From positions 6,638 to 70,637 of IMG/VR virus record IMGVR_UViG_3300046504_000138: a DNA stretch of 64,000 nucleotides. The stretch is one strand, 5' to 3'. This stretch comes from a virus. Below, one piece after another: positions 3,000 through 53,709 of this stretch. Position 1 is the stretch's first letter, and every line of letters begins with the position of its first letter. The position numbers and the translations under genes were made by a program. Under the pieces are notes generated by a model. The model was not told where the DNA came from. It searched no databases and saw only the letters and a program-made list of their open reading frames with translations.

Positions 3000-3611
3000 A
3001 TGGAAAAATACATATGGTCATTGGATATTTCGACAACTAATGTGGGGTGTTCACTTTGGAACAATAAAGGAAAGTTGATTGAATTAAAACATTTAGCATT
3101 AAAGTCAGATAAAGAAACTTCAGTGGATGATAGAGATATTCATAAAGCAGATGTCTTTAAAGAATATTGTATTGCCTACAGACAGAGAATTGAAAATGAT
3201 TTAAATGGTGAAATGCTACACATATTTGTAGAAGCACCATTACAAAATACTCCTAAGAATATTAATACTACAGCATTATTGCTTGGCTTTAATGGTATGG
3301 CAAGATATGTTCTATATGAAGTATTCGATTTAATGCCGATTAAGATCAGTGTATATGAAAGTCGTAAATTATTCTGTCCTGAATTAGTGAAGGTATCATT
3401 TAAAAAAGGCGAAAAAGTAGAAACTATGAGTTTCCCCGAAAAATATTTAAAAGAAAAAAAGTTGTATATTTGGGAAAAGGTTGCTAAATTAGAACCCCAA
3501 ATCGAATGGTTTTATACCAAAAACAATACTCTTAAAGACATGTGTTTTGATATGTCAGATAGTTATTGTGTTGGTTTTGCCGGACTAAAGACTTTGGGTA
3601 TTGTGAAATGA
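3000..3611 (+). CDS. RuvC-like Holliday junction resolvase
   Basis: SLDISTTNVG, FVEAPL and DMSDS acidic motifs of the RNase H fold. Confidence 0.75.
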   Translation: MEKYIWSLDISTTNVGCSLWNNKGKLIELKHLALKSDKETSVDDRDIHKADVFKEYCIAYRQRIENDLNGEMLHIFVEAPLQNTPKNINTTALLLGFNGMARYVLYEVFDLMPIKISVYESRKLFCPELVKVSFKKGEKVETMSFPEKYLKEKKLYIWEKVAKLEPQIEWFYTKNNTLKDMCFDMSDSYCVGFAGLKTLGIVK

Positions 3612-3916
3612 AATTTATTTATTTAATCCAATCATTAGAAAACGGGTATTATAAAATAGGTGTTTCAAAGCATCCACAAAAAAGAATACAAGGATTACAA
3701 ACTGGTAATCCTTCACCTACAAAATTAATTGGGGTATATCAAACCGAATACGCAAATCAAATTGAACGAGCATTGCAAAGAAGATATGCACATCTTCATA
3801 AAGAAGGTGAATGGTTTGACTTGGGCATAAGTCAAGAAGTAAATTTCAAGAAGGAATGTCAAAAAATTGAAGACTCAATAGTGTTTCTTAAAGAAAACGG
3901 CAATGTATTTATATAA
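3608..3916 (+). CDS. GIY-YIG (T5orf172-like) nuclease-domain protein
   Basis: IYLI...YKIGVS..PQKRIQGLQTGNP...GEWF; ATGA overlap with the upstream gene gives the 3608 start. Confidence 0.8.
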   Translation: MKFIYLIQSLENGYYKIGVSKHPQKRIQGLQTGNPSPTKLIGVYQTEYANQIERALQRRYAHLHKEGEWFDLGISQEVNFKKECQKIEDSIVFLKENGNVFI

Positions 3917-6072: not shown

Positions 6073-6110
6073 ATTTGCCTTAATGCTTTGAATTGAGGCA
6101 AATTTTTTTT
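6073..6110 (+). terminator. Intrinsic terminator
   Basis: ATTTGCCTTAAT/ATTGAGGCAAAT stem plus T-run. Confidence 0.7.
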
Positions 6111-6125
6111 ATATTTGCCATTAGT

Positions 6126-6755
6126 ATGAATCGAGTAGGCAATAGAATGTTTAGATGTGTGTATGTATATGAATTTTCAGACAATTCCGCATATATTGGC
6201 TTAACATATAATTTAGAAAAAAGAAATATCAATAGAAAAACACAATCGTATGATGCTGTAACCAAACATATTTCTGAAACTAATTCAACACCAATAATAA
6301 AGCAATTAAGTGAGTATATACCAACTAATAAGGCATCATTATTGGAAAATGAATATATTAAAAAGTATAAAAATAATGGATGGAAAGTATTAAATAAGAC
6401 AAAAGGCGGTGAAATTGGCTCTGGTGAAAGAATATGGACAAAAGAGTTATGTCAAAAAGAAGCATTAAAATATAATACAAAGTCTGAATTTTATTATTTC
6501 TCAAATAAAGCATATACTGCAGCACAAAGATATGGTTGGTTAGATGAAATTTGTCAACATATGAAATCTCAAATTCATCATTGGACTATTGATGAAGTTA
6601 AATATGAAGCATTAAAATATAGTGCAAGATATGAATTTACAAAAAATAATAAAAATGCATATATATGGGCAATAAGACATAATGTATTAGATGAGATTTG
6701 TCAACATATGTGCAGTATGATTGGCACAAATCAATATAAAGAAAAAATAAAATGA
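6126..6755 (+). CDS. GIY-YIG homing-endonuclease-like protein with two C-terminal repeats
   Basis: VYVYEF...AYIGLT...R; repeated WT...EALKY...EF...AY...LDEICQHM; start moved downstream of the promoter. Confidence 0.75.
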   Translation: MNRVGNRMFRCVYVYEFSDNSAYIGLTYNLEKRNINRKTQSYDAVTKHISETNSTPIIKQLSEYIPTNKASLLENEYIKKYKNNGWKVLNKTKGGEIGSGERIWTKELCQKEALKYNTKSEFYYFSNKAYTAAQRYGWLDEICQHMKSQIHHWTIDEVKYEALKYSARYEFTKNNKNAYIWAIRHNVLDEICQHMCSMIGTNQYKEKIK

Positions 6756-31982: not shown

Positions 31983-32504
31983 TTATGGCAATTTAATATT
32001 ATATGTCTTTGATAAATATAATAATGCTTCAGCATTTCCTTTACAATCCATTCTTGGATCATGACTATGAGTTGTTATTCTATGTTTTTTCCATCTGTAA
32101 TACATGTCGCCACTTGCACCAGAAAATAAATCTCCAATTCTTCTTGAGGACCAACCAAAAGGATTTGAACCATTAAATTTGTGAAAATAATAGTTAAGAC
32201 ATACACCAAAATCATAACCATTATTATCTGAAATACCAACAGGCGAACCTTTGGAATTGTATCTTAACCATTCAGCAAATTCTTTCATCACCTTCTCAGG
32301 TTCATCGAAAGTCAGATGTTCTTCACGGCTAAAACCACTAATTGCCAATGCTTCAGGATTCCATTTATCAGAAATGGGTCTAATTTTACCGTAAAATGTT
32401 TTGGATAATGATGGTTCGACAACAATTGCAGCAAAACACACCATTGAATATTCTGGCATAAGTGGACCATCACTTTCACAATCTACACAAATTAATTTAC
32501 TCAT
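31983..32504 (-). CDS. DEDDh 3'-5' exonuclease
   Basis: VDCESDG, N.YD and H.P..D motifs. Confidence 0.75.
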   Translation of the reverse strand: MSKLICVDCESDGPLMPEYSMVCFAAIVVEPSLSKTFYGKIRPISDKWNPEALAISGFSREEHLTFDEPEKVMKEFAEWLRYNSKGSPVGISDNNGYDFGVCLNYYFHKFNGSNPFGWSSRRIGDLFSGASGDMYYRWKKHRITTHSHDPRMDCKGNAEALLYLSKTYNIKLP

Positions 32505-32989
32505 AATAATATTTTTAAAATTTTATCTTTTACTCCACTTTGTTTTATTCCTTCATTAGCACGGGTACATCTGACAAAGTTTTCTGGTATCCAAAGTTTT
32601 AAATCCAAATCATCAACTGCCACCCATTTAGTAAGTTCGTTTTCACTCGCATATTTATTAATTTCATATGAACGGCACTCTTCAAGTTGTTGCAGACTTG
32701 TGAACTGTACTCCCCAAGAAGAATTTGTTACTCCTGAAACTTTTGCCTTTACATTATTCCATTCAAAAATCTCATTTAATACTGCAATAGTATAACGATC
32801 TCTCCAATCAGATGAAATTATAATAATAGGATCGGTCTTTTCAACAATAGCATTAAAAACCTTTACGCATGTTTCATCAAAACGATAACAATCATACATA
32901 GGATGCCATTTTTTCCTATTAGTATAGTATTGTGTTGTCGTAGCAAGTACTCCGTCAATATCGAGTAATATATATCTTTTAATGCTCAT
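32501..32989 (-). CDS. HAD phosphatase ('Swiss-army-knife' RNA-repair-like)
   Basis: LDIDGVL, ISSDWR and VDD motifs. Confidence 0.8.
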   Translation of the reverse strand: MSIKRYILLDIDGVLATTTQYYTNRKKWHPMYDCYRFDETCVKVFNAIVEKTDPIIIISSDWRDRYTIAVLNEIFEWNNVKAKVSGVTNSSWGVQFTSLQQLEECRSYEINKYASENELTKWVAVDDLDLKLWIPENFVRCTRANEGIKQSGVKDKILKILL

Positions 32990-33363
32990 TCTATGTCTTC
33001 TTTATCCCAATCTATGGTCAAACCGTCCTTTAATACCTTTAAATGAATGTCAATGTGTTCAACACCTTTTTCGGGTTTAAATGTAAGGTCAAGAATTGCT
33101 TCTTTGGTCTTTTCATTGATATCTATGTTGATTTTGCAATCTCTTTTCAGAAGTTCTTCTTTGACAATTTTTGCTTGTTCATAATCCTCTCGCATTATTG
33201 CAAAGGCATATAATTTACCTAAATCAGGGATGGCAAAAGACGATAAATCATCAAATTCGGGAAAATTAATGCCAATAAGATGAATACTATCCATAGTAGC
33301 ATCAGGATCAAATTTTTGTATTAATTTGAGCACGTGTCTTCTAAGTTCTTCTTCCCATCCCAT
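32986..33363 (-). CDS. Hypothetical protein
   Basis: ORF in operon; UVR-like EDYEQAK..K motif. Confidence 0.6.
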   Translation of the reverse strand: MGWEEELRRHVLKLIQKFDPDATMDSIHLIGINFPEFDDLSSFAIPDLGKLYAFAIMREDYEQAKIVKEELLKRDCKINIDINEKTKEAILDLTFKPEKGVEHIDIHLKVLKDGLTIDWDKEDIE

Positions 33364-33370
33364 AATTTAA

Positions 33371-33925
33371 TTAAGTTCTATTCAATTTTTGCCAAATTGC
33401 CGTGCAGTAACCAATTTGGTATTTGCAATCGTCAATTGGATTGTGTTCAGTTCCCATTTTGGGATAATGCTCTTTTACTTCCGGTGCAAATGCAACCAAA
33501 GTCCTGACATCACGTTCACATCTGAAATTCCAAGGTTCTTTTAATCCACACTTAATATATGCATCTTCAAGAATACCCATATCAAATCTTACACCATTGC
33601 CCCAAAGTTGAACTGTTGTAATGCCTAACTGTTCTAAATACAATTTAAAGTCATAAAGTACTTGACTGATATTTTTGCCATCACCTATGGCAACTGCCAT
33701 GCGTGCTTTTTCGTTCTGCATGAACCACCATTCAATGGTGTCACCATTTACGATCATACCTCTATCAAGACATGATTGAATATCGACTTTGGTATAAAAT
33801 TCTCTACCAAATTCTCCGGTTTCAATGTCGAATTCAACAGCACCAATAGAGCAGATTACCGAATTGCTCTTATTGCCTAATGTTTCAAGGTCAACCATTA
33901 CATGACCTAATTTTTTTGTTTCCAT
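33371..33925 (-). CDS. DEDDh 3'-5' exo(ribo)nuclease
   Basis: MVDLETLG, WGNG..FD, RDVRT and HNPIDD motifs. Confidence 0.85.
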   Translation of the reverse strand: METKKLGHVMVDLETLGNKSNSVICSIGAVEFDIETGEFGREFYTKVDIQSCLDRGMIVNGDTIEWWFMQNEKARMAVAIGDGKNISQVLYDFKLYLEQLGITTVQLWGNGVRFDMGILEDAYIKCGLKEPWNFRCERDVRTLVAFAPEVKEHYPKMGTEHNPIDDCKYQIGYCTAIWQKLNRT

Positions 33926-33928
33926 GTT

Positions 33929-34483
33929 TTAATTATTAATTGTATGTACTTTATCTAATTCGTCCCATAATTCCTGAAGTATGTCCTGATTAAGTTTGCT
34001 TTTGTACCAAACAAGTGCTTTCTTAAATATGGGTTTGCGATATGCATATTCTTCAACGTATTTCTTATACATTGAACTACCATGTGCTTTACTATACATA
34101 GCATTGGCAAGTATATCGCACATCTTAAGTATAATTGCACGATAATTTATTACAGTTTTGCCCATTGTAAGTAAATGTTTCATCAAACGATTTTCTGCTG
34201 ATACATCTGTTACCGCCAATACTATATCTGCAGCATCCTTTCCAATTACTGCTGAAACATCATTATATGATTGTTTTGTATCTTCCAATATATCATGGCA
34301 ATACGCAGCAGCAACGGTAATATCTCTATCTTCCGGCTTAACAAAAATGGACTTGTAGTGTTGAACAACAAGAACTACTCCATTAACATGCACCATATAA
34401 CTCTGACCTTTATCATAAGTACAATTTGCGTCATCGTGACATTTACGGGCGTATTCTGCAATTATTTTAAAATCTGGTGTCAT
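33929..34483 (-). CDS. RelA/SpoT (Mesh1)-type HD hydrolase
   Basis: Y..H...V, AAYCHDILEDT, V.AVTD and K.CD..AN motifs. Confidence 0.75.
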   Translation of the reverse strand: MTPDFKIIAEYARKCHDDANCTYDKGQSYMVHVNGVVLVVQHYKSIFVKPEDRDITVAAAYCHDILEDTKQSYNDVSAVIGKDAADIVLAVTDVSAENRLMKHLLTMGKTVINYRAIILKMCDILANAMYSKAHGSSMYKKYVEEYAYRKPIFKKALVWYKSKLNQDILQELWDELDKVHTINN

Positions 34484-35549: not shown

Positions 35550-36359
35550 ATGGGAACAAAATATGCGTCAAAACAAATAGAAAAAGAAATTATTTCATTA
35601 TATGAAACAAAATCAGAGAACGAAATAGCATCAATTTATGGTAGAACACAATCTGGAATTAATTTAATTCTAAAAAGAAATGGAATTCGAAAATTAAAAA
35701 AAAGTAGATTAAACATGAGTCATCTTGCACTTAATGTTGACTATTTTAAAGAAATTAATTCAAAAGATAAAGCATATTGGCTTGGCTTTATATGCGCAGA
35801 TGGAAATATTAAAAAAACAAATAATAAAGTATCATTAACATCAAAAGATTTGGAAGTGATTGAAGGATTTAAAGGGGCAATTGGTGCAGAACATACTATT
35901 AGTAAGAGAAAATTTTTTGACAAAAGAACTAATAAAACATATATCGGATATTTAATTCAAATTGGTAATGAATTATTTGTTAATAATTTAATTGATTTAG
36001 GTGTGACATCAAATAAAACAGATATATTGAAATTTCCGAAGATTGATGAAAAATATTATTCATATTTTATTGCAGGATTATTTGACGGAGATGGGTTTGT
36101 TGGTATCAGAAATCATAATAAACTACGAATAAGTCTTATTTCAACTAAAGAAGTGTTAGATTTTATAAGTAATTTATTGACTAATATAGGAATTAATGAA
36201 TTATCGAAAGTTAAAGTTTCGAAGAATAAAATAAATGTTTGGAAAACATGTCTATATAAAGACGCAGATAAGTTTTTAAATTATATATATGGTGATGATA
36301 ATTTTAAGTATTATTTAATGAGAAAATATAACATATTTAAAAATGCAAGTAGAAATTAA
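35550..36359 (+). CDS. LAGLIDADG homing endonuclease (free-standing)
   Basis: AYWLGFICADG and FIAGLFDGDG motifs; N-terminal HTH. Confidence 0.9.
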   Translation: MGTKYASKQIEKEIISLYETKSENEIASIYGRTQSGINLILKRNGIRKLKKSRLNMSHLALNVDYFKEINSKDKAYWLGFICADGNIKKTNNKVSLTSKDLEVIEGFKGAIGAEHTISKRKFFDKRTNKTYIGYLIQIGNELFVNNLIDLGVTSNKTDILKFPKIDEKYYSYFIAGLFDGDGFVGIRNHNKLRISLISTKEVLDFISNLLTNIGINELSKVKVSKNKINVWKTCLYKDADKFLNYIYGDDNFKYYLMRKYNIFKNASRN

Positions 36360-36945
36360 TAAATTTCAAAATTGTATATTTTTGGACGTTGACGGTGTTT
36401 TGAATTGTCAATTATTTTATGATGAAAAATTCAAAGAACTCAAACATTTTGATGGCATACCATTTTATAAAACCGTGAAAAAATACTTACGCAAATTATT
36501 TCATCAAAAAGAAATCAGTGATTTGAACTATTATAAATCACAAATGTGTGCCAAACGCATAAGTTGGCTCAATATATTATGCGAAGAAACTAATAGTGCA
36601 GTAGTCCTCAGTGCTTCTATGAGAAGTGGTTGGTCTGTTCCGGACTTACAGAAAATTTTTAATTATTGTGGTGCTACCTTTATTATAATAGATAAGACGA
36701 GTCATTGTGATTGTAGAATCAGAGGTGTGGAAATCCAAAATTGGATGAAGGATAATTGTATGAAATGGTTTGGTGTTCAATATTATGATTTTCATCGTTA
36801 TGCAATCATTGATGACGATTCAGATATGTTACTTTGTCAAAAGGGGAATTTTTTTCAAACTGATAATTATAGTGGTTTAACTCCCACTACTTGTTATAAA
36901 ATAAAAAGATTTTTTACACAAAAAACATTTCATTACAATGAATAG
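36343..36945 (+). CDS. HAD phosphatase ('Swiss-army-knife' RNA-repair-like)
   Basis: FLDVDGVLN, VVLSASMR, RG.EI..W, IIDDDSDM and GLT motifs. Confidence 0.85.
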   Translation: MQVEINKFQNCIFLDVDGVLNCQLFYDEKFKELKHFDGIPFYKTVKKYLRKLFHQKEISDLNYYKSQMCAKRISWLNILCEETNSAVVLSASMRSGWSVPDLQKIFNYCGATFIIIDKTSHCDCRIRGVEIQNWMKDNCMKWFGVQYYDFHRYAIIDDDSDMLLCQKGNFFQTDNYSGLTPTTCYKIKRFFTQKTFHYNE

Positions 36946-39327: not shown

Positions 39328-40467
39328 ATGAAGATAAAAATTGTATTGGGGTTAGGCTTCGGGGATGAAGGTAAAGGCGCAACAGTCAATGCTTTATGTA
39401 CTGATCCTAAAAATACTGTAGTTGTTAGGCATAATTCGGGTCATCAAGTTGGACACACTGTTGTTCATAATAATATCCGGCATCCATTTTCGAACTTTGG
39501 TTCAGGTACACTCAAAGGTGTTCCTACATACTTTTCAGAATACTGTACTGTTAATCCATTGGCGGTGAAAAAAGAAGGCGATGTTCTTCGTGCACAAGGA
39601 ATTTATCCCGTTGTATATTATAATGCCAATGCTATGGTGACTACACCATATGATATTTATAGGAATACAAATGATGGCAATAATGTTTTACATGGCACTG
39701 TTGGTGTTGGTTTTGGCGCAACAATTCAACGTAATGAGGACATGTATCACCTGTACATCAGAGACCTTCAATATCCGAAAATTAGAGACATGAAATTGAT
39801 TGCTATTCAGCAATACGTTTGCCGTGAAACCAATGATTATGCCATTGTTGGAAACAAACATTATGATCAAATCATTGAAAAATTCAAATTGTCGTGTGAT
39901 GAACTTGTTCAGAAGTACTCAATTATTGATAATTTCGGTTACATTCGTGTACATGATCCTGATTTGATTTTTGAAGGTGGTCAGGGTATTATGCTTGACA
40001 TGGATTATGGTTTCTATCCAAATGTAACACGAAGCAATACCACAAGCAAGAATGCAATGGAAATTATTGAGAAGAATGGTCTTGGCAGTCATATGATCGA
40101 AACATATTATGTCACACGTGCATATCAAACCAGGCACGGCAATGGACCGATGACTAACGATGATTTGGATATTTCATATATCAAACCTAATCCTCTTGAA
40201 ACAAATGTTGATACAGGCGCACAAGGCATTTTCAGAAAATCTGTATTGGACATGGATTTACTAAAATATGCATTGAATTGTGATAAGTATCACAATAAAA
40301 GTTTGGGAAAATTTTTGGTAGTTACCTGCATGGATCAAGTTGGGGAAAGAGTACCTGTTACTGATTTCGAAGGTAAACTTTTGAGTCTCATGCCAAAAGA
40401 AATCGGCAATTGGCTGAGTATATTTAATGTTTATACATCAAATTCTGATCAAGGAATTGTTTTTTAA
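39328..40467 (+). CDS. Adenylosuccinate-synthetase-like protein (divergent PurA family)
   Basis: GDEGKG, GHTV, FEGGQG..LD...G.YP.VT.S and TRHGNGP motifs. Confidence 0.85.
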   Translation: MKIKIVLGLGFGDEGKGATVNALCTDPKNTVVVRHNSGHQVGHTVVHNNIRHPFSNFGSGTLKGVPTYFSEYCTVNPLAVKKEGDVLRAQGIYPVVYYNANAMVTTPYDIYRNTNDGNNVLHGTVGVGFGATIQRNEDMYHLYIRDLQYPKIRDMKLIAIQQYVCRETNDYAIVGNKHYDQIIEKFKLSCDELVQKYSIIDNFGYIRVHDPDLIFEGGQGIMLDMDYGFYPNVTRSNTTSKNAMEIIEKNGLGSHMIETYYVTRAYQTRHGNGPMTNDDLDISYIKPNPLETNVDTGAQGIFRKSVLDMDLLKYALNCDKYHNKSLGKFLVVTCMDQVGERVPVTDFEGKLLSLMPKEIGNWLSIFNVYTSNSDQGIVF

Positions 40468-41669: not shown

Positions 41670-43025
41670 ATGGGAAACAGTACTTGGTCAGACGAAAGGT
41701 TTATTGCAAACCGAAAATACAAAGCATTGTGTGTAATTATGACACCTAATGGTATTGTAAAAGAAGGAACAGTGTTAACAACAGAAGAATGGAAAGAGGT
41801 CTTAGTATTTGGCATAGGACATGATTTTGACGGCATGTTCGAATTAGTTGATGAAACAAACAAAAATAATAATATGAAAGAATTTCCAAAACTCTTCAAA
41901 AAAACAACAACAGGTGCTATTCAGGAATGGACAGTCAGTGTTGATGAAATTAATGGTATTCCTACCATAATCAATAGATTTGGTCAGGTTGGCGGTAAAA
42001 TTCAATACAGTCATGAACAAGTTCTATCAGGCAAAAACACTGGCAGGGCAAATGCAACTACTGCAATGGAACAGGCAGAAGCACAAGCCAAAAGCCGTTG
42101 GGAAAAACAACTCAAAAAGGGATACGTTCAGAATATCGAAGATGCACAGGCAGGTGTTGTTGATGCCATTATTGAAGGCGGTATTGCTCCAATGCTTGCG
42201 CATAAATTCTCAGAACAAGGGCATAAGATAAAATATCCGGCACTTGCACAGCCGAAACTTGATGGACACCGTTGTACTTCACAGAACATGACATCATTAC
42301 TTCATCACATTTCAGAGAACGGTAATGAAATTACTCTTTGGAGCAGAACACGTAAGCCTATTACAAGTTGTCCACATATAATTGAGGCACTGAAATATAT
42401 TTCAATTCCCAGACTTGATGGCGAACTTTATAATCATGACTATCATAATAACTTTGAAGAACTCAGTTCATTAATACGTCAGGAAGAGCCAAAAGAAGGA
42501 TATGAAAAGATTCAATATCATGTTTATGATATGCCAAGTTCCAATATGACCAATATTGAACGTAACGAAATTCTACAGTCATTTAAAAAGGGTTTTGAAG
42601 GTACGCCAATTCATATTGTTGAAACTATTGTGGTTAATGATGAAGACGAACTCATGGTGGCTTTCGAACATTTTCTTGCAGAAGGTTATGAAGGTTGCAT
42701 GGTCAGGAATGCAGATGGCATATATGTCAATAAACGTTCATATGACCTGCAGAAAATCAAAGAATTTGACGACAGTGAGTTTAAAATTATTGGAATTAAA
42801 GTCGGAACTAAAGGTTCAATGGCAGGTAAAGCAGTATTCACCTGTGATATTCCCAATGTAGGAACTTTTGATGTTAAATTGAAAGGCAATATGGATGATC
42901 TGAAAACATATGCTGATGACCCAAGTTTGGTTATTGGTAAAATTCTCACGGTCAAATATCAAGGATTTACCAAGTATGGTTTTCCAAGATTTCCTGTTGG
43001 ATTGCGTTTCAGAGAAGATTTATAA
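41670..43025 (+). CDS. ATP-dependent DNA ligase with N-terminal extension
   Basis: QPKLDG.RC, LDGELY, YHVYD, EG.MVR, K.K and PRFP motifs; an internal start near MKEFPKL is possible. Confidence 0.9.
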   Translation: MGNSTWSDERFIANRKYKALCVIMTPNGIVKEGTVLTTEEWKEVLVFGIGHDFDGMFELVDETNKNNNMKEFPKLFKKTTTGAIQEWTVSVDEINGIPTIINRFGQVGGKIQYSHEQVLSGKNTGRANATTAMEQAEAQAKSRWEKQLKKGYVQNIEDAQAGVVDAIIEGGIAPMLAHKFSEQGHKIKYPALAQPKLDGHRCTSQNMTSLLHHISENGNEITLWSRTRKPITSCPHIIEALKYISIPRLDGELYNHDYHNNFEELSSLIRQEEPKEGYEKIQYHVYDMPSSNMTNIERNEILQSFKKGFEGTPIHIVETIVVNDEDELMVAFEHFLAEGYEGCMVRNADGIYVNKRSYDLQKIKEFDDSEFKIIGIKVGTKGSMAGKAVFTCDIPNVGTFDVKLKGNMDDLKTYADDPSLVIGKILTVKYQGFTKYGFPRFPVGLRFREDL

Positions 43026-45104: not shown

Positions 45105-45674
45105 ATGAAAACAGGAACATTAATTGGTGCAGGTGTATTTGCACTTATCGTAGTAGGATTTCTCTTTTGGGCAATTGGTTTATCAAACACCGAAAAGAAA
45201 CTCTACCTGACAGGTAAAGCAGCACAAAATCAGACTCAGGTAATCTTTGACAATACTTGGAAAACAATTCGTGATCAGGCTAATGTCACGGATAACTACA
45301 AGGATGATTTCAAAGAAATTTACATCGGTATGATGGAAGGTCGTTACAAAAACGATGCAGTTGCAGGTCAGCAATCTCTGATGAAATGGGTACAGGAAAG
45401 TAATCCGACTTTGGATGCAAGTATCTATAAGACTTTAATGAATACTATTGAAGGTTCACGTAAAGAATTTACATTTCAACAGGAAAAACTTATTGACATT
45501 GATCGTCAGCATAAATCCCTGAGAGCAACTTTCCCGAACACTTTGATCATCGGTGGTCGTCCGGACTTGGAAATTAAATTAGTAACAAGTGCTAAGACCG
45601 AAGAAGCCTTTAAGACTGGTCAGGATAACGACAATCTAATAAAAAGAGAGCCGAAACCTGCAGTAACAAAATAA
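45105..45674 (+). CDS. LemA-like membrane-anchored protein
   Basis: N-terminal TM and helical body with GRY, W.QE.NP, Y..L...IE..R..F and FP motifs. Confidence 0.6.
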   Translation: MKTGTLIGAGVFALIVVGFLFWAIGLSNTEKKLYLTGKAAQNQTQVIFDNTWKTIRDQANVTDNYKDDFKEIYIGMMEGRYKNDAVAGQQSLMKWVQESNPTLDASIYKTLMNTIEGSRKEFTFQQEKLIDIDRQHKSLRATFPNTLIIGGRPDLEIKLVTSAKTEEAFKTGQDNDNLIKREPKPAVTK

Positions 45675-45678
45675 AAAA

Positions 45679-45688
45679 GTTCTTTGAA
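45679..45688 (+). promoter_or_regulatory. boxA-like antitermination site
   Basis: GTTCTTTGAA directly upstream of the structured RNAs. Confidence 0.45.
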
Positions 45689-45694
45689 GATAAA

Positions 45695-45914
45695 GTCTTT
45701 CTGCTGAAAGCAAACAGTGCAGTATGTTCATAGCCTTCAAAAATGGTGGCGATCCGCAAGGATTGGGTTAAGTCCACCTTCTATTCAAAATGCATAGTCG
45801 TGCCAAGAGGACGTTGTTTGTAATAAGATGGCAAGAAAAATACTGGGACGATGTTGATAGACTGAAACGACTGCAACTACGTGCCATTCTGCTTGGAAAA
45901 ACAGACAGAAAGAC
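45695..45914 (+). ncRNA. Unassigned ~220-nt structured RNA
   Basis: Closing stem GTCTTTCTG/CAGAAAGAC; nested TGCAGT/ACTGCA, GGTGG/CCACC, CGATCC-GCAA-GGATTG, TAGTC/GACTG; possible pseudoknot ATGGCA/TGCCAT. Confidence 0.7.
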
Positions 45915-45919
45915 CCCAC

Positions 45920-46080
45920 GATTGGATGACGGAATTGGTAGACGTATACTTGTTGGTTTTAAGGTTAAAATATGTCTTTAAAGCATAGGGTAGTTCCACG
46001 CATTGGGGATTAGTGCACACGAGTCCTTCTGCAATTCAAAAAACATACCCACCATGCAGGTTCGAATCCTGCTCCAATCA
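45920..46080 (+). tRNA. tRNA-like RNA (Leu-type D-arm) with ~110-nt insert in place of anticodon/variable arms
   Basis: Acceptor GATTGGA/TCCAATC+A; D-arm ACGGAATTGGTAGACGT; T-arm GCAGG-TTCGAAT-CCTGC; no encoded CCA. Confidence 0.75.
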
Positions 46081-46176
46081 CGAGTACTAACACGATGGCT
46101 GAGTGTTCAACTGACGGATAACATGCCAAAAAGGAAGCACCGTTACAAAGGAAAGTTGGCGACTAAACCTAACTTT

Positions 46177-46205
46177 GCAAGTTTGATAAATGAAACTTGT
46201 TTTTA
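46177..46205 (+). terminator. Terminator-like hairpin closing the RNA cassette
   Basis: CAAGTTT/AAACTTG stem plus T-run. Confidence 0.5.
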
Positions 46206-46220
46206 TTTAAATTATTAATT

Positions 46221-47084
46221 ATGGGATATCTTCACATTGAAAATCTTTACAAAAATCAAAGCATTCTTTTATTTAAGGAATGCTATGCTATGGAAAAAAT
46301 TCATGGCACTTCTGCACACATTAGTTGGAATTTCACTAATAAAATTGTGAATTTCAGCAGTGGTGGTGAGAGCCACGAAAACTTCATTAAATTATTTGAT
46401 CAGGAATTTCTCAAAGCCAAATTCGTTGAGGTATTTCCTGATATTGATGTTGTTATCTTCGGTGAAGCATATGCCGGAAAACAGCAAGGTCAATCTCATG
46501 TTTATGGCAAACAATCAAAATTCATCGGTTTTGATGTTAAAGTTGGTGACTATTGGCTTAATGTACCGAATGCAGAAGATGTATGTAAACAATTCAATAT
46601 TGAATTTGTGCATTATAGAAAGATTGAAGTCAATCTTGAAAATCTTACTGCCGAAAGAGATATGGATTCCGTTCAGGCTGTTCGTAATGGCATGGGATAT
46701 GGTCATAAACGTGAAGGCGTAGTTCTTCGTCCTTTAGTTGAAATGCGCATAAACAATGGTGACAGGGTTATTTGCAAATACAAGCCTGACGAACAAATGG
46801 AAACCAAGACCAAGAGAGAAGTCAGTGAAGAACAACTTAAGGTTTTAAGTGATGCAAAAGCAATTGCCGAAGAATGGGTAACTAATCTCAGGCTTGAACA
46901 TGTGTTACAGAAATTCCTTGCTGATGTCAGTATGGAATCAATGGGTGAAGTAATTAAAGCAATGGTTGAAGATGTTTACAGGGAAGGCAAAGGTGAAATA
47001 GTTGAAAGCAAAGAAGTAAGCAAAGCCATTGGCGGTAAAGCCGTACAACTTTTCAAACAGAAACTTAATAGCACGTTAAAATAA
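46221..47084 (+). CDS. RNA ligase, Rnl2 family
   Basis: Motifs I EKIHGT, III FGE, IIIa FDV, IV EGVVLRP and V KYK. Confidence 0.85.
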   Translation: MGYLHIENLYKNQSILLFKECYAMEKIHGTSAHISWNFTNKIVNFSSGGESHENFIKLFDQEFLKAKFVEVFPDIDVVIFGEAYAGKQQGQSHVYGKQSKFIGFDVKVGDYWLNVPNAEDVCKQFNIEFVHYRKIEVNLENLTAERDMDSVQAVRNGMGYGHKREGVVLRPLVEMRINNGDRVICKYKPDEQMETKTKREVSEEQLKVLSDAKAIAEEWVTNLRLEHVLQKFLADVSMESMGEVIKAMVEDVYREGKGEIVESKEVSKAIGGKAVQLFKQKLNSTLK

Positions 47085-47672: not shown

Positions 47673-48437
47673 ATGGAAAACAATGACTATTATGTGTATG
47701 TCTATTTTAATCAACTAAAATCGGGACAATGGATTTATAAAGAGCATGTTTTTAATTATCAACCCTTTTACGTTGGTAAGGGTAGAAGAAAAAGAGACAT
47801 CATGCATTTATGTCCATTCATGTTAGCATATAAAAACGTTAAAAATTCAACAATAAAATCAATAATCAGTGAAATTGGAGAAATGCCAATTCATTATAGA
47901 ATATACGAAAATTTGACCAATGAAGAAGCAATTAGCATTGAGATTGATTTTATAAAAACGTTTGGTAGAAAAGATAATGGCACAGGAATTTTATCGAATG
48001 GTACTGATGGTGGTGATGGTGCGAATAATTTTTCTGAGGATATCTTAAAAAAACTTGGCAACAATCGTAGGAAGGTTTATCAGTATAGTCTTGATGGAAT
48101 TTTTATTAAAGAATGGGAAAGTGTTAAATCAACCGAATTAGAATTTAAAAGTAGTGGCGATATTTCTACGGCAATTAAACGAAATGGAACTTATTGTGGA
48201 TATGTTTGGTCATATGAAAAACATGAAAGCATTAAACCAAGGACAAAATATCAACAACCAATAAAATATGAAAATATTAAACAGGTTAATAAAAGAACTA
48301 ACGAAATTATACATACATTTGCAAATGCATTAGAAGCAGAAACCGAATTAAAACTAAATGCTGGTGCAAGAAACAAAATTTGTGATTGCTTGAATAATAA
48401 ATTAAAGACTGCATACGGATATAAATGGAAATTTTAA
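47673..48437 (+). CDS. GIY-YIG-type homing endonuclease with NUMOD1-like repeats
   Basis: YYVYVY...PFYVGKG...R, E...I..FGR...G.L.N.TDGG, VYQYSLDG.FIKEW.S and TAYGYKW motifs. Confidence 0.85.
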   Translation: MENNDYYVYVYFNQLKSGQWIYKEHVFNYQPFYVGKGRRKRDIMHLCPFMLAYKNVKNSTIKSIISEIGEMPIHYRIYENLTNEEAISIEIDFIKTFGRKDNGTGILSNGTDGGDGANNFSEDILKKLGNNRRKVYQYSLDGIFIKEWESVKSTELEFKSSGDISTAIKRNGTYCGYVWSYEKHESIKPRTKYQQPIKYENIKQVNKRTNEIIHTFANALEAETELKLNAGARNKICDCLNNKLKTAYGYKWKF

Positions 48438-48457: not shown

Positions 48458-49255
48458 ATGGTTGATGAACTTGGAAATCGCATGAAGAAATTTTATGAGG
48501 ACAGAACAAAAAGTTGGCTTCCACGCAGAACGTATACTATTATCCGTATTGACGGTAAAGCATTCCACACATATACAAGAGGTTTAAAACAACCTTTTGA
48601 TGAAGGTCTTGTCGAAGACATGGACGCAACTGCTTGTTACCTTTGCAAGAACATACAAGGCAGTAAATTTGCATTTGTTCAGAGTGATGAAATCAGTATT
48701 CTTTTAACCGATTTCGATAAAATAGATACAGATGCCTGGTTTGATGGCAACATACAAAAAATGGTAAGTGTTGCTGCAAGTCTGGCTACTGCAAAATTTA
48801 ATCAGTTAAGACTTATTCGAACAAATAATGAAGTTGTTGAATTTACTGGTGCTGATATTGGATTATATAAAATAGCAACTTTTGATGCACGTGCATTTAC
48901 AATACCATGTGATTATGAAGTTGAAAATTATTTTATTTGGAGGCAAAAAGATGCTACAAAAAACAGTATTTCAAGTGTTGCTCTGAGGTTTTATAGTCAT
49001 AAAGAATTGGAAGGTAAAAACGGTGATCAAAAGCAAGAAATGATATTTCAAAAAGGCACTAATTGGAATGATTATGCTCCAATGTTTAAAAGAGGCAGAT
49101 TTATTTTCAAAAAAGAAGTTGAAATGGAAACACCATTTGTTTCAAAGGATAAAAAGCAAACCACTTATATGCGAAATGTTTGGACAAGTGGCGAATGCCC
49201 AATATTTACTCAAGACAGAGAGTTTTTATTAAAATTTATTCCAAAAAATTCTTAA
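48458..49255 (+). CDS. Thg1-like 3'-5' nucleotidyltransferase (tRNA-His guanylyltransferase family)
   Basis: RIDGKAFH, QSDEIS, FDAR, WRQ.DA.KNS and KRG motifs. Confidence 0.92.
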   Translation: MVDELGNRMKKFYEDRTKSWLPRRTYTIIRIDGKAFHTYTRGLKQPFDEGLVEDMDATACYLCKNIQGSKFAFVQSDEISILLTDFDKIDTDAWFDGNIQKMVSVAASLATAKFNQLRLIRTNNEVVEFTGADIGLYKIATFDARAFTIPCDYEVENYFIWRQKDATKNSISSVALRFYSHKELEGKNGDQKQEMIFQKGTNWNDYAPMFKRGRFIFKKEVEMETPFVSKDKKQTTYMRNVWTSGECPIFTQDREFLLKFIPKNS

Positions 49256-50932: not shown

Positions 50933-51118
50933 ATGATAAAAGAGACAAATTACAAGGTTGTAAGGGTTACAAAGACCGAATTCGAGTTGGATAATGGTGA
51001 CATATATCCACATAACTTCGAACTCGAAGAAGACATCACCGTTGAAGAATTTCAAAAATTACTGGATTCTTCAAAAGAACTAATCGTAGATTTACTGAGG
51101 AAAATTGATGAACAATAA
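50933..51118 (+). CDS. Small hypothetical protein inside the IS left end
   Basis: ORF after TATTTATA (50903), overlapping the tnpA start. Confidence 0.6.
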   Translation: MIKETNYKVVRVTKTEFELDNGDIYPHNFELEEDITVEEFQKLLDSSKELIVDLLRKIDEQ

Positions 51119-51842
51119 TTTACTAAATATAAAAGAAGCATCGGAGTACCTCAATACCTCTAAGGAAACATTAAGGAATTGGGATAAGAGTGGTAAGTTA
51201 CCGTCAATAAAAACTGTTGGTGGTCATAGGAGATACCAAAAGGAAAAACTTGATGAATTCATTGGAATTATAAAGTCAGATGAAACATCGGATGTTGTTG
51301 CCACCTATGCCAGAGTAAGTTCACATGAACAGAAAACCAAAGGTGATTTGGATAGACAATCTCAGAGAATTTCTGAATACTGTGCAAAGAAGAAATTGAA
51401 AGTTGAATATATAATAAAAGATGTTGGGTCAGGATTATCCGATACAAGGTCGGGATTTGTTAAGTTAGGGAATCTGGTTATTGATAAGAAAATCACACAG
51501 GTCATCATCGAGAACAAAGACAGATTAACAAGGTTTCAATATAACTTTGTGGAGAAGATGTTCGGGAGTTACGGAGTTAAAGTAATATGTATCGACAAAC
51601 CAGACGATGAAGGGGATAAAGAGTTTATTAATGACCTTATGATGATAATTGCGTCATTCTCTGGAAGATTATATGGAGCACGAAGTGCTAAAAACAGAAG
51701 AGAAAAGAAATTAAAAGAAAGTAGTATAAATTTTCCATTACCCGATAACGCAAAGCCAGAAGATTATGAATGTCCAATACCTAAGTTTACTGATGACGAT
51801 TTAAGGACTTATGATATGAAAATAATAATGAAAAATAAATAA
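51105..51842 (+). CDS. tnpA: IS607-type serine recombinase (MerR-like HTH + resolvase)
   Basis: TLRNWD..G......T.GGHRRY, YARVSS..QK..DL.RQ, DVGSG, DRLTRF and FSGRLYG.RS motifs. Confidence 0.92.
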   Translation: MMNNNLLNIKEASEYLNTSKETLRNWDKSGKLPSIKTVGGHRRYQKEKLDEFIGIIKSDETSDVVATYARVSSHEQKTKGDLDRQSQRISEYCAKKKLKVEYIIKDVGSGLSDTRSGFVKLGNLVIDKKITQVIIENKDRLTRFQYNFVEKMFGSYGVKVICIDKPDDEGDKEFINDLMMIIASFSGRLYGARSAKNRREKKLKESSINFPLPDNAKPEDYECPIPKFTDDDLRTYDMKIIMKNK

Positions 51843-52572: not shown

Positions 52573-53709
52573 ATGAAACTAATCAGGTCAACCAAATGTA
52601 GTTTGAAATTCGCAACAGCGAAGAAGCAAAATGATTTATTAATCATCTTGAGTGAATACTCAAAGGTGGTTAATATCTTCATTGACTATTTCTGGCTGAA
52701 TTCTGAGAAAGCAACAAAAGGAGAACTCCTTAAACCAGTTGTTGACATACCCGAAACTTGGTTATCGGCACGACTACGAAAGGTAGCAGCAAGAGAAGCC
52801 ATCGACATGATTAATGCTTCAAAGATTCGTTGGAAAGAAAAAGCAGCGAAGCCAGTTCATAAAGGTAATAGGATGTATGTTAGTTGTACTATTGCTGACT
52901 TAGTATCAACCAAAAACAATGGTTATAAAACCGAAGACAGCAGACTTTTTGATGCTTGGTTACACATTGCCTCAGTAGGTAATAAAATGATAATGGATTT
53001 ACCGATTAAATATCATAAACACTTCAACAAATATAACAACATCGGTAAGAGATTGAACTCGTATATTATCACGAAGAATTATGTTCAGTTTAGTTTTGAA
53101 ATAATAACACAACCTAAGAAAGAAGACACGAAGTGTATTGGTATAGATACTGGTATAAACGCATTGGCGAGTCTTAACAACGGAAATCAGTATGGTAAAG
53201 ACATTAAAGGTTGCATCGAGAGAGTGAAAAGATGTAAGCAGAAGTCCAAAGGCTATTATGTTGCTAAGAGAGCATTAAAACAACGCATAGATGAAACAGC
53301 AAAGGAAATATTAGTGAAAGAGAATCCTGATTTGATAGTTGTAGAACGATTAAAGAATATGGGATATAAAACAAAAGCCAAATGCTTGTTGGCTAAAAGT
53401 ATCAGGCGTTCTATCGGAACTTGGAATTGGAAGTACTGGTTGAAAAGGTTAGAAGCACAATGCGAGATTAACCGTGTTAGTTTTCGTAGTGTAGCACCTT
53501 ATTACACCAGCACAACCTGTCCAGTATGTGGTCATTCCGATAGGGGAAATCGATTAGGAGAAATGTTCTTGTGTCTCAGTTGTGGTCACGGGGATAATGC
53601 AGATATAAATGCGGGTAAGAACATTTTGAATCGATTTCTCACGGGACTATACGGTGCTCGTTACAAACAGGAAAATCAAGAGAATTTGGTTGTTACCAAT
53701 TTTTTGTAG
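52573..53709 (+). CDS. tnpB: TnpB RNA-guided nuclease
   Basis: RuvC triad GIDTG / VVERL / ADINA intact; CPVC...CLSC zinc ribbon. Confidence 0.92.
   Translation: MKLIRSTKCSLKFATAKKQNDLLIILSEYSKVVNIFIDYFWLNSEKATKGELLKPVVDIPETWLSARLRKVAAREAIDMINASKIRWKEKAAKPVHKGNRMYVSCTIADLVSTKNNGYKTEDSRLFDAWLHIASVGNKMIMDLPIKYHKHFNKYNNIGKRLNSYIITKNYVQFSFEIITQPKKEDTKCIGIDTGINALASLNNGNQYGKDIKGCIERVKRCKQKSKGYYVAKRALKQRIDETAKEILVKENPDLIVVERLKNMGYKTKAKCLLAKSIRRSIGTWNWKYWLKRLEAQCEINRVSFRSVAPYYTSTTCPVCGHSDRGNRLGEMFLCLSCGHGDNADINAGKNILNRFLTGLYGARYKQENQENLVVTNFL

Follow-up and report, generated by a model that had tools for sequence, protein, structure and literature searches.

The subject of this study is a tRNA-like element (positions 45920-46080) found in a 64,000-nt stretch of viral DNA, hereafter called the window, which comprises bases 6638-70637 of the 70,637-bp IMG/VR virus record IMGVR_UViG_3300046504_000138; coordinates are window positions unless a related locus (L number) is named. 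The element does not stand alone as a gene, but belongs as one module to a composite non-coding locus of approximately 530 nt. It is neither an ordinary tRNA, nor an intron-bearing tRNA, nor a lone pseudogene, and comparison with its relatives points to an uncatalogued family of non-decoding tRNA-like modules, carried by a composite phage RNA locus that is linked to RNA-repair genes. No paper describing the locus was found in the literature searched (subscription journals were outside the coverage).

A preliminary description, made from the letters of the window alone, had presented the element as a tRNA with a structured insert in place of the anticodon arm, and its interpretation is partly supported by the results below; the membership of the element in a conserved locus of approximately 530 nt is a point outside that account. 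The reading that we favour, and hold to be probable, is that of a tRNA-derived, non-decoding module which would be recognised by tRNA-processing enzymes and cut out of the RNA of the composite locus.

Conserved ends and variable interiors of the tRNA-like modules

The anatomy of the element is given in Table 1. The acceptor stem with A73, the Leu-type D arm and the TTCGAAT T loop are all present as first described, and so are the 9-bp hairpin with its 11-nt loop and the GGGTA/TACCC stem enclosing further hairpins. RNAfold reproduced the acceptor, the T arm, the GGGTA/TACCC stem and the 9-bp hairpin, the last in both the minimum free energy and the centroid structure. The D arm, with GAATTGGTAGA closed by a 3-bp stem, is similar to that of T4 tRNA-Leu (AAATTGGTAAA). 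The element has a 7-bp acceptor, a D arm with GG, a TTCGAAT T arm and a discriminator; the 5-bp anticodon stem and 7-nt loop of a cloverleaf are missing. In shuffled sequence, a T arm with a 7-bp acceptor arises approximately 1.5 times per 70 kb, so structure alone does not exclude chance; chance is excluded by homology, since in 27 distinct relatives the ends recur at a constant distance from a conserved block.

Related loci were obtained in two ways: 39 phage loci were fetched via the ligase protein and further ones came from a metagenome scan, while an exact scan of viral contigs with the 25-nt 3' end gave 0 matches. In BLASTn searches, only the first ~25 and the last ~28 bases of the element matched in several ligase-fetched loci, with 115-185 nt between them. 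A structural scan of the loci (with a detector demanding 7/7 acceptor pairing and at least 4/5 T-stem pairing) revealed two recurrent kinds of oversized tRNA-like modules upstream of the ligase, each with 27 distinct members from related uncultivated phage contigs. Family A, to which the element belongs, has the form GATTGGA...TCCAATC-A-C with a Leu-type D arm and lengths of 71-219 nt; its sister family B has the form GCG....CGC-T-C. Position 73 is invariant in both (A73, followed by C74, in 27/27 family A modules; U73 in 27/27 of family B). By contrast, the acceptor pairs of family A vary on both sides: 2:71 is A-T in 17 and G-C in 10 modules, 4:69 is T-A in 17, T-G in 7 and C-G in 3, 5:68 is G-C in 21, A-T in 4 and G-T in 2, and 7:66 is A-T in 21, G-C in 3 and G-T in 3. 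The T stem likewise occurs in several pair types, and the D stem as ACG/CGT, GCG/CGC, TCG/CGA, GTG/CAC and ACA/TGT.

The interiors behave differently. The alignment of homologues proposed in the preliminary description as a check supported that description, with arms that are conserved in the 27 distinct relatives and interiors that change and are unalignable even between nearest relatives in family A. The tRNA-like modules cannot decode. In family B, the anticodon position is usually occupied by a short stem with a 4-5-nt GNRA-like cap (GGGAA, GGAA, GAGA or GAAA), after which comes a long arm with GTGCAC in its apical loop.

Other oversized or odd tRNA-like units were seen in L008 (2471-2585), L043 (35-159 and 626-695), L046 (33-160) and in the upstream modules of L092 and L063. 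Their acceptors (among them GTACATG, GGGGGAA, GGGGAGA, GGGGGTG and AGTTGTG) indicate that the phenomenon of tRNA-like modules is wider than families A and B.

Organisation of the composite locus

The whole gap between the virion structural protein gene (ending at 45674) and the ligase gene is non-coding and conserved. It is divided into a 5' domain, then one to three tRNA-like modules, and finally a 3' domain (Table 1). Where both families occur in a locus, B precedes A, and in L006, L040 and L045 the modules are packed 3-6 nt apart.

The 5' domain was delimited with an nhmmer profile of 8 homologues, which matches L001 1277-1518 (corresponding to window 45676-45917) with an E-value of 2.7e-39. 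It is closed by a long-range helix, GUCUUUCUG/CAGAAAGAU (partner strand also delimited as CAGAAAGAC), and contains a second helix, CAAACAG/GUUGUUUG; in an alignment of 24 distinct 5' domains, both helices show compensatory changes in L088, L004 and L065. This domain was detected in 30 of 65 loci and is hence optional. Two promoter candidates within it were rejected: GGAAAAACAGACAGAAAG (45895-45912) occurs once in the window and is the 3' strand of the closing helix, and the leader AGTTCTTTGAA gave 5 matches against 3.6 expected. Pairing of this leader with the 3' domain, as judged by eye, showed no covariation.

The 3' domain contains an invariant hairpin, a long-range helix and a terminator. 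In the RNAalifold consensus of 57 distinct sequences, the long-range 4-bp helix occurs with UA 26/CG 19/AU 8 and CG 41/UA 15; 95.8% of the cells are paired (24-34% with slid partners), and the observed covariation was reached by none of 500 shuffles. The 5' and 3' domains are candidate new RNA families.

The junction between module and 3' domain is exact. In 51/65 loci the 3' end of the module abuts the first base of the 3' domain, and it lies exactly 8 nt before the TAACACG motif of that domain, which fits the earlier suggestion of a processing tag. Four loci have an insertion of ~900-1070 nt that separates the family A module from the 3' domain (L005/L021, 1063-1948; L057; L082), indicating that the junction tolerates insertion; the L005 insert holds a reverse-strand open reading frame (ORF) of 336 aa with an FCS/treble-clef zinc finger.

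On the far side of the 3' domain, the terminal hairpin is succeeded in L037, L040, L045, L055, L062 and others (approximately 17 of 60 loci) by an additional GC-rich hairpin (GGGACTCCC...GGGAGTCCC) with a T-run, and in these loci the first hairpin has no T-run after it. In the window, the ligase probably starts at ATG 46221 rather than at TTG 46197, i.e. 16 nt past the terminator T-run, and a TAnnTTTG-like word (TAACTTTG) lies inside the end of the 3' domain. From this arrangement, the ligase gene may have its own promoter overlapping the terminator or may depend on read-through. TAnnTTTG, which we take to be the Bacteroidota -7 promoter element and use only as a lead to the host, is found near the first element in 18/58 loci (against 5.5% of random windows) and is absent upstream of the locus in the window. 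In the module-less locus L084, it immediately precedes the same starting bases of the 3' domain; its presence at this border in module-less loci such as L084 fits the border as an RNA end.

Table 1. Features of the composite locus and of its surroundings in the window
Feature	Position	Strand	Description
PurZ-like adenylosuccinate synthetase gene	39328-40467		matches a PHROG annotated as PurZ-type enzyme
ATP-dependent DNA ligase gene	41670-43025		
Virion structural protein gene	45105-45674		adjoins the non-coding locus on its 5' side
5' domain	45676-45917	+	~240 nt, begins AGTTCTTTGAA
tRNA-Leu-like module (family A)	45920-46080	+	161 nt
Acceptor stem	45920-45926/46073-46079		GATTGGA with TCCAATC, 7/7 pairs
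D arm, Leu-type	45929-45945		ACG-GAATTGGTAGA-CGT, 3-bp stem
Interior	45946-46055		110 nt of hairpins in place of anticodon and variable arms
Interior hairpin 1	45956-45964/45976-45984		GTTTTAAGG/CTTTAAAGC, 9 bp (two G-U), 11-nt loop TTAAAATATGT, at anticodon-arm position
Interior hairpin 2	45988-46050		GGGTA 45988-45992/TACCC 46046-46050, at long-variable-arm position
Apical hairpin of interior hairpin 2	46007-46026		GGAUU/GAGUCC, 10-nt loop AGUGCACACG; palindrome GUGCAC 46013-46018
T arm	46056-46072		GCAGG-TTCGAAT-CCTGC
Discriminator A73	46080		followed by C at 46081
3' domain	46081-46204	+	~125 nt; invariant hairpin AACACG-loop-(C/G)GUGUU, covarying long-range helix, terminator
Terminal hairpin of 3' domain	46178-46199		CAAGTTT-GATAAATG-AAACTTG, then T-run 46200-46204
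RNA ligase gene, Rnl-type	46221-47084	+	PF09414 (1.2e-13), phrog_548; directly downstream of the non-coding locus
GIY-YIG endonuclease gene	47673-48437		
Thg1-like 3'-5' polymerase gene	48458-49255	+	PF04446 (7e-28), phrog_4717 (2.9e-82)

Linkage to the ligase gene and distribution

The neighbouring ligase of the preliminary description is a real one (PF09414), and its linkage to the locus is tight. Of the 56 loci with 450 nt or more of available sequence, 47 have a ligase homologue downstream on the same strand, as do 36 of the 45 that were found independently of the ligase. A Thg1-like gene, a member of a tRNA 5'-end repair family, is also present 3' of the ligase in 8 related loci (L002, L003, L004, L010, L011, L037, L115 and the window's own).

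Among ligase-anchored loci, the 3' domain was detected in 14/16 at 70% ligase identity or more and in 1/23 below this value. More distant relatives have true tRNA genes at the same spot (Sup-tta and Ile in L028 and L029, Arg and Ile in L032, His in L025 and L026). Together, these two observations indicate that the locus is clade-specific and probably arose from a tRNA cluster. The carriers are one clade of uncultivated, low-GC huge phages: the window has a GC content of 32%, and the record, 22% complete according to CheckV, represents part of a huge-phage genome of roughly 300 kb. In L028, L029 and L038 (2631-2706 in each), canonical 76-nt tRNAs with the anticodon tta (ochre-suppressor) or tca (opal) lie directly upstream of the ligase together with a tRNA-Ile, and these suppressor-type tRNAs hint at stop-codon recoding in sister clades.

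A BLASTn search of 45700-46300 against 50,697 phage records gave no match, and thus no cultured phage with the locus was found at that sensitivity. LR745208 (485 kb), the best named relative of the ligase (56% identity), has no such RNA upstream of the ligase gene. Three matches were obtained in a scan of GTDB genomes, of which two are 20-nt chance matches and the third is JBAZIW010000001.1 (L120; 362,763 bp). The latter is filed as a metagenome-assembled genome of Candidatus Paceibacterota, carries both RNA domains and looks like a huge-phage genome binned as a bacterium. DNA runs holding parts of the locus were mostly peat, lake or soil metagenomes by label, and most of them hold small shares.

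Searches for known RNA classes

With default settings, ARAGORN predicted 0 tRNAs in the window, and no Rfam family matched anywhere in it at the gathering thresholds; the Rfam tRNA model RF00005 gives the element 18.1 bits against a cut-off of 29. When 10 loci were searched against Rfam at E-values of up to 1, tRNA was the sole family matched. The earlier statement that the element is too short for a group I intron or a transfer-messenger RNA (tmRNA) agrees with these searches: Intron_gpI had no match at E up to 10 in 45700-46300, nor at E up to 1 in the 10 loci, and the tmRNA search of ARAGORN (-m) was negative for the element. As had also been noted, there is no G3-U70 pair, position 3:70 being U-A. 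Group I intron and permuted intron-exon arrangements were therefore rejected for want of a model match, and neither a G preceding the module nor a U terminating it is conserved; tmRNA was rejected on the U-A pair and the ARAGORN result. A relationship to RNase P RNA, prompted by GGAAAG and ACAGAAAG motifs, was rejected as well (no Rfam match, wrong motif order).

Proposed processing of the module

Comparison of the loci revealed tRNA-type ends that are conserved, an interior that is free, junctions that are exact and flanking domains that covary. RNase P, tRNase Z, the CCA-adding enzyme and leucyl-tRNA synthetase (LeuRS) read the acceptor/T minihelix and the elbow, and since the ends of the module are of this type, it is most likely processed like a tRNA. 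We propose that the module derives from a tRNA-Leu of which the acceptor stem, A73, D arm and T arm were kept as minihelix and elbow, with lineage-specific hairpins replacing the anticodon and variable arms. The 5' domain, one or more modules and the 3' domain with its terminator would form one transcription unit directly upstream of the Rnl-type ligase gene. Through its tRNA-like ends, the module would be acted on by host RNase P and by the enzymes of 3'-end processing and CCA addition, and the precursor would be cut at the module borders, as in tRNA punctuation. Such cuts would release the 5' domain, a stable 161-nt tRNA-like RNA (compare the species 1 and 2 RNAs of T4) and the 3' domain. 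The interior would be free to vary, as the processing enzymes do not read it. LeuRS identity relies on A73 and the elbow and is independent of the anticodon; the module has both A73 and a Leu-type D-loop/T-loop elbow, and may be leucylated.

Several observations weigh against this reading. The pairing percentages of the modules are circular, given the detector rule, so that only the diversity of pair types and the invariance of position 73 are informative. The fold of the whole module is no better than that of shuffled sequences (z -1.41; 19/200 shuffles equal it), and the interior of the window's copy has no alignable relative, which leaves its hairpins without covariation support. The sub-threshold alignment to the Rfam tRNA model allows a different hairpin of 5 bp (45971-45987) to be drawn, with a 7-nt loop, CUUUAAA (U33, anticodon-like UUA, A37); it competes with the 9-bp hairpin, and neither is conserved among homologues. 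No module is present at the -8 position in 14/65 loci, comprising 3 truncated contigs, 1 false hit, 3 loci with the ~1-kb insertion, 1 with a variant T loop, 1 with a module 122 nt away, 1 unexplained case and 4 loci without any module (L084, L007, L094 and L103), and modules are thus dispensable for the locus. Metatranscriptome contigs (from two runs; relatives 90-99% alike) lie only over 45711-45877 of the 5' domain and none over the module; contigs of this kind cannot show RNA ends, and the uncovered part is not evidence of absence. They are a weak hint that the 5' domain is transcribed. Finally, pure punctuation leaves the conserved interior of family B and the invariant A73 unexplained.

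Alternative explanations

In a second explanation, the element is an aminoacylatable tRNA mimic, i.e. a decoy, sponge or sensor in a tRNA conflict, or a non-ribosomal aminoacyl donor, acting with the Rnl ligase and Thg1-like genes. Its acceptor end and elbow (Leu-type here, Gly-type in family B) would be shown to host enzymes that modify or cut tRNA ends. The invariance of position 73 in both families while acceptor pairs vary, the conservation of the Leu-type D arm with covariation, the tight ligase linkage, the independence of LeuRS from the anticodon and the presence of more RNA-repair genes in the window (two HAD_SAK_2 phosphatases, an Rv2179c-like exoribonuclease and the Thg1-like gene) are all consistent with a mimic. 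However, no anticodon-loop mimic is conserved, which makes anticodon nucleases, named in the preliminary description as possible targets of a decoy, an unlikely target; some loci, such as L084, have the ligase but no module, and no aminoacyl-transferase-type gene was found among the 83 window ORFs scanned. We regard this explanation as unlikely. Also improbable in our judgement is its fuller form, in which former tRNA genes were turned into chargeable non-decoding mimics (Leu-type A and Gly-type B), decoys or sensors for immunity that attacks tRNA ends, within a new multi-domain phage RNA class whose 5' and 3' domains would be released by tRNA-processing enzymes.

Very unlikely, in our estimate, is a role of the element as a structural part of one large, intact, self-assembling RNA resembling GOLLD or ROOL, in which the GUGCAC loop would make a kissing contact and the GNRA loops would make tertiary ones. 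The layout of a 5' domain, a linker with tRNA-like units and a conserved 3' domain is GOLLD-like, GNRA-type loops are common in family B, and GTGCAC is present in 24/27 family B interiors and in the apical loop of the element. The flanks in family B extend this motif to a self-complementary 8-mer in 21/27 cases (GGTGCACC, CGTGCACG, AGTGCACT), and the GUGCAC loop could mediate loop-loop contacts. Against this, 10-30% of shuffled interiors would contain an 8-nt palindrome by chance, so that single 8-mers are not significant, and the flank variants track two subfamilies, i.e. few independent events. RNAalifold gives GUGC an intramolecular partner (GUAC/GCAC) beside the D stem, only 5/27 family A interiors (the window's copy included) contain the motif, and the Rfam models of GOLLD and ROOL matched neither the window at the gathering threshold nor the 10 loci at E up to 1.

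A functionless, decaying tRNA-Leu pseudogene from a former tRNA cluster is likewise very unlikely. The real tRNAs at the same position in distant relatives, the interior unique to the window's copy, the rejection of the element by standard detectors and the loci without modules could be understood in this way. Yet all three stems (acceptor, D and T) are retained in 27 distinct copies despite two-sided changes, together with A73 and the exact junction to the 3' domain, which speaks against a neutral relic, in which pairing would go first; the unique disruption named in the preliminary description as a refutation is thereby contradicted.

Hardly tenable is a tRNA-Leu (or suppressor) gene with a non-canonical intron removed and sealed by the neighbouring ligase, to which the adjacent ligase gene, the suppressor tRNAs near the ligase in relatives, the drawable UUA hairpin and a tRNA-Leu(caa) with a 77-nt intron forced by relaxed ARAGORN lend themselves, but whose forced model pairs only 3 bp in the anticodon stem and puts T at position 37, whose homologues share no splice position or anticodon (relaxed intron models of 11 family A members gave Leu-caa, Ser-gct, Tyr-gta, His-gtg, Phe-gaa twice, Stop-tta, Leu-taa, Asn-att twice and Gln-ctg, i.e. 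9 different anticodons, with differing intron positions), which finds no group I match, whose skipped form or joint appears in none of 4 runs (the RNA contigs do not cover the module), and in which a suppressor is not needed, since the window ORFs are open under table 11.

Comparison with known systems

The nearest analogues are T4 species 1 RNA, a precedent for the proposed processing, and GOLLD RNAs, a precedent for tRNAs retained within a large RNA. The T4 rnaC product (species 1 RNA; AF158101 70908-71046, 139 nt) resembles the excised module proposed here in having a CCGGG-UUCGAAU-CCCGG T arm, acceptor-like end pairing and a large non-tRNA interior. T4 species 1 and species 2 (rnaD) are stable RNAs of 120-140 nt that the phage encodes and transcribes together with tRNA-type units, a likeness that for the present locus concerns architecture only; a GIY-YIG homing endonuclease gene lies nearby in both the rnaC locus and the locus described here. 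According to PMC2330249, species 1 RNA derives from a tRNA-cluster precursor. T4 rnaC differs in lacking sequence similarity and a Leu-type D arm and in having two U-U mismatches in the acceptor, and nothing in T4 corresponds to the conserved 5' and 3' domains. The T4 ligase genes lie elsewhere than rnaC, and to our knowledge no function has been assigned to species 1 RNA. The resemblance is one of kind, as an analogy, and not of family. The present locus offers a richer comparative set than T4 species 1, with two module families that carry tRNA-identity features, a fixed junction to a covarying domain and conserved linkage to RNA-repair genes.

GOLLD and ROOL are large phage or prophage RNAs encoded near tRNA islands. 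GOLLD RNAs have, as outlined in bioRxiv 10.1101/2024.12.08.627333, a variable 5' region, a linker sometimes holding tRNAs and a conserved 3' region. GOLLD and ROOL RNAs share with the present locus a phage-borne position, the three-part layout and GNRA-type and self-complementary loops. The differences from GOLLD are its size (>800 nt, compared with ~530 nt here), the short 3' domain of only ~125 nt and the embedded units, which here are not functional tRNAs.

In the bacterial Y RNA YrlA, the termini form the Ro-binding stem, the tRNA-like part is internal, the partner is Rsr/Ro60 and an RtcB ligase gene adjoins. YrlA is described (PMC4201824) as a non-decoding tRNA-like RNA that mimics acceptor, T and D arms beside an RNA ligase gene. 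In the present locus, by contrast, the termini form the acceptor stem, the ligase is Rnl-type (PF09414) and not RtcB, and no TROVE/Ro gene (PF05731) is present in the 70.6-kb record, a fragment that is about 22% complete.

Like tmRNA, which is about 350 nt long, the element joins an acceptor and a T arm across a long structured interior without an anticodon arm, but it has U3-A70, a true Leu-type D arm and a length of 161 nt. It shares Leu-type ends and extra sequence in the anticodon region with the group I intron-containing tRNA-Leu(UAA) of cyanobacteria and plastids; the insert here is 77-110 nt, below the size of a group I core, and has no conserved insertion point. The proposed processing has parallels in MALAT1 mascRNA, gammaherpesvirus TMERs and mitochondrial tRNA punctuation, which are eukaryotic or organellar systems in which a tRNA-shaped unit directs RNase P/RNase Z cuts that set the ends of adjacent non-coding RNAs, as is suggested here by the exact junction. 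Unlike these handles, the unit described here sits between two structured phage RNA domains and keeps identity features of the kind read by aminoacyl-tRNA synthetases.

If the modules are indeed processed and charged, they would represent a new form of phage interaction with the tRNA machinery of the host or with defences that target tRNAs; if they remain part of a single RNA, the locus would be comparable in kind to the GOLLD/ROOL assemblies, though compact. In either case, the 5' and 3' domains remain candidates for new families.

Other genes in the window

Further genes of RNA-repair type lie at 32501-34483 and 36343-36945. They encode the two HAD_SAK_2 ('Swiss army knife' HAD) phosphatases and the Rv2179c-like 3'-5' exoribonuclease mentioned above, as well as an HD-domain protein. 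The PurZ-type homologue (39328-40467) suggests possible 2-aminoadenine DNA. The 64 kb also hold four genes of homing-endonuclease type (3566-3916, 6093-6755, 35550-36359 and 47673-48437), which are one T5orf172/MUG113, two GIY-YIG and one LAGLIDADG. An IS607-type element is present in the phage genome and consists of a serine recombinase with a MerR-type helix-turn-helix domain (51105-51842), followed by a TnpB/Cas12f-like protein (52573-53709).

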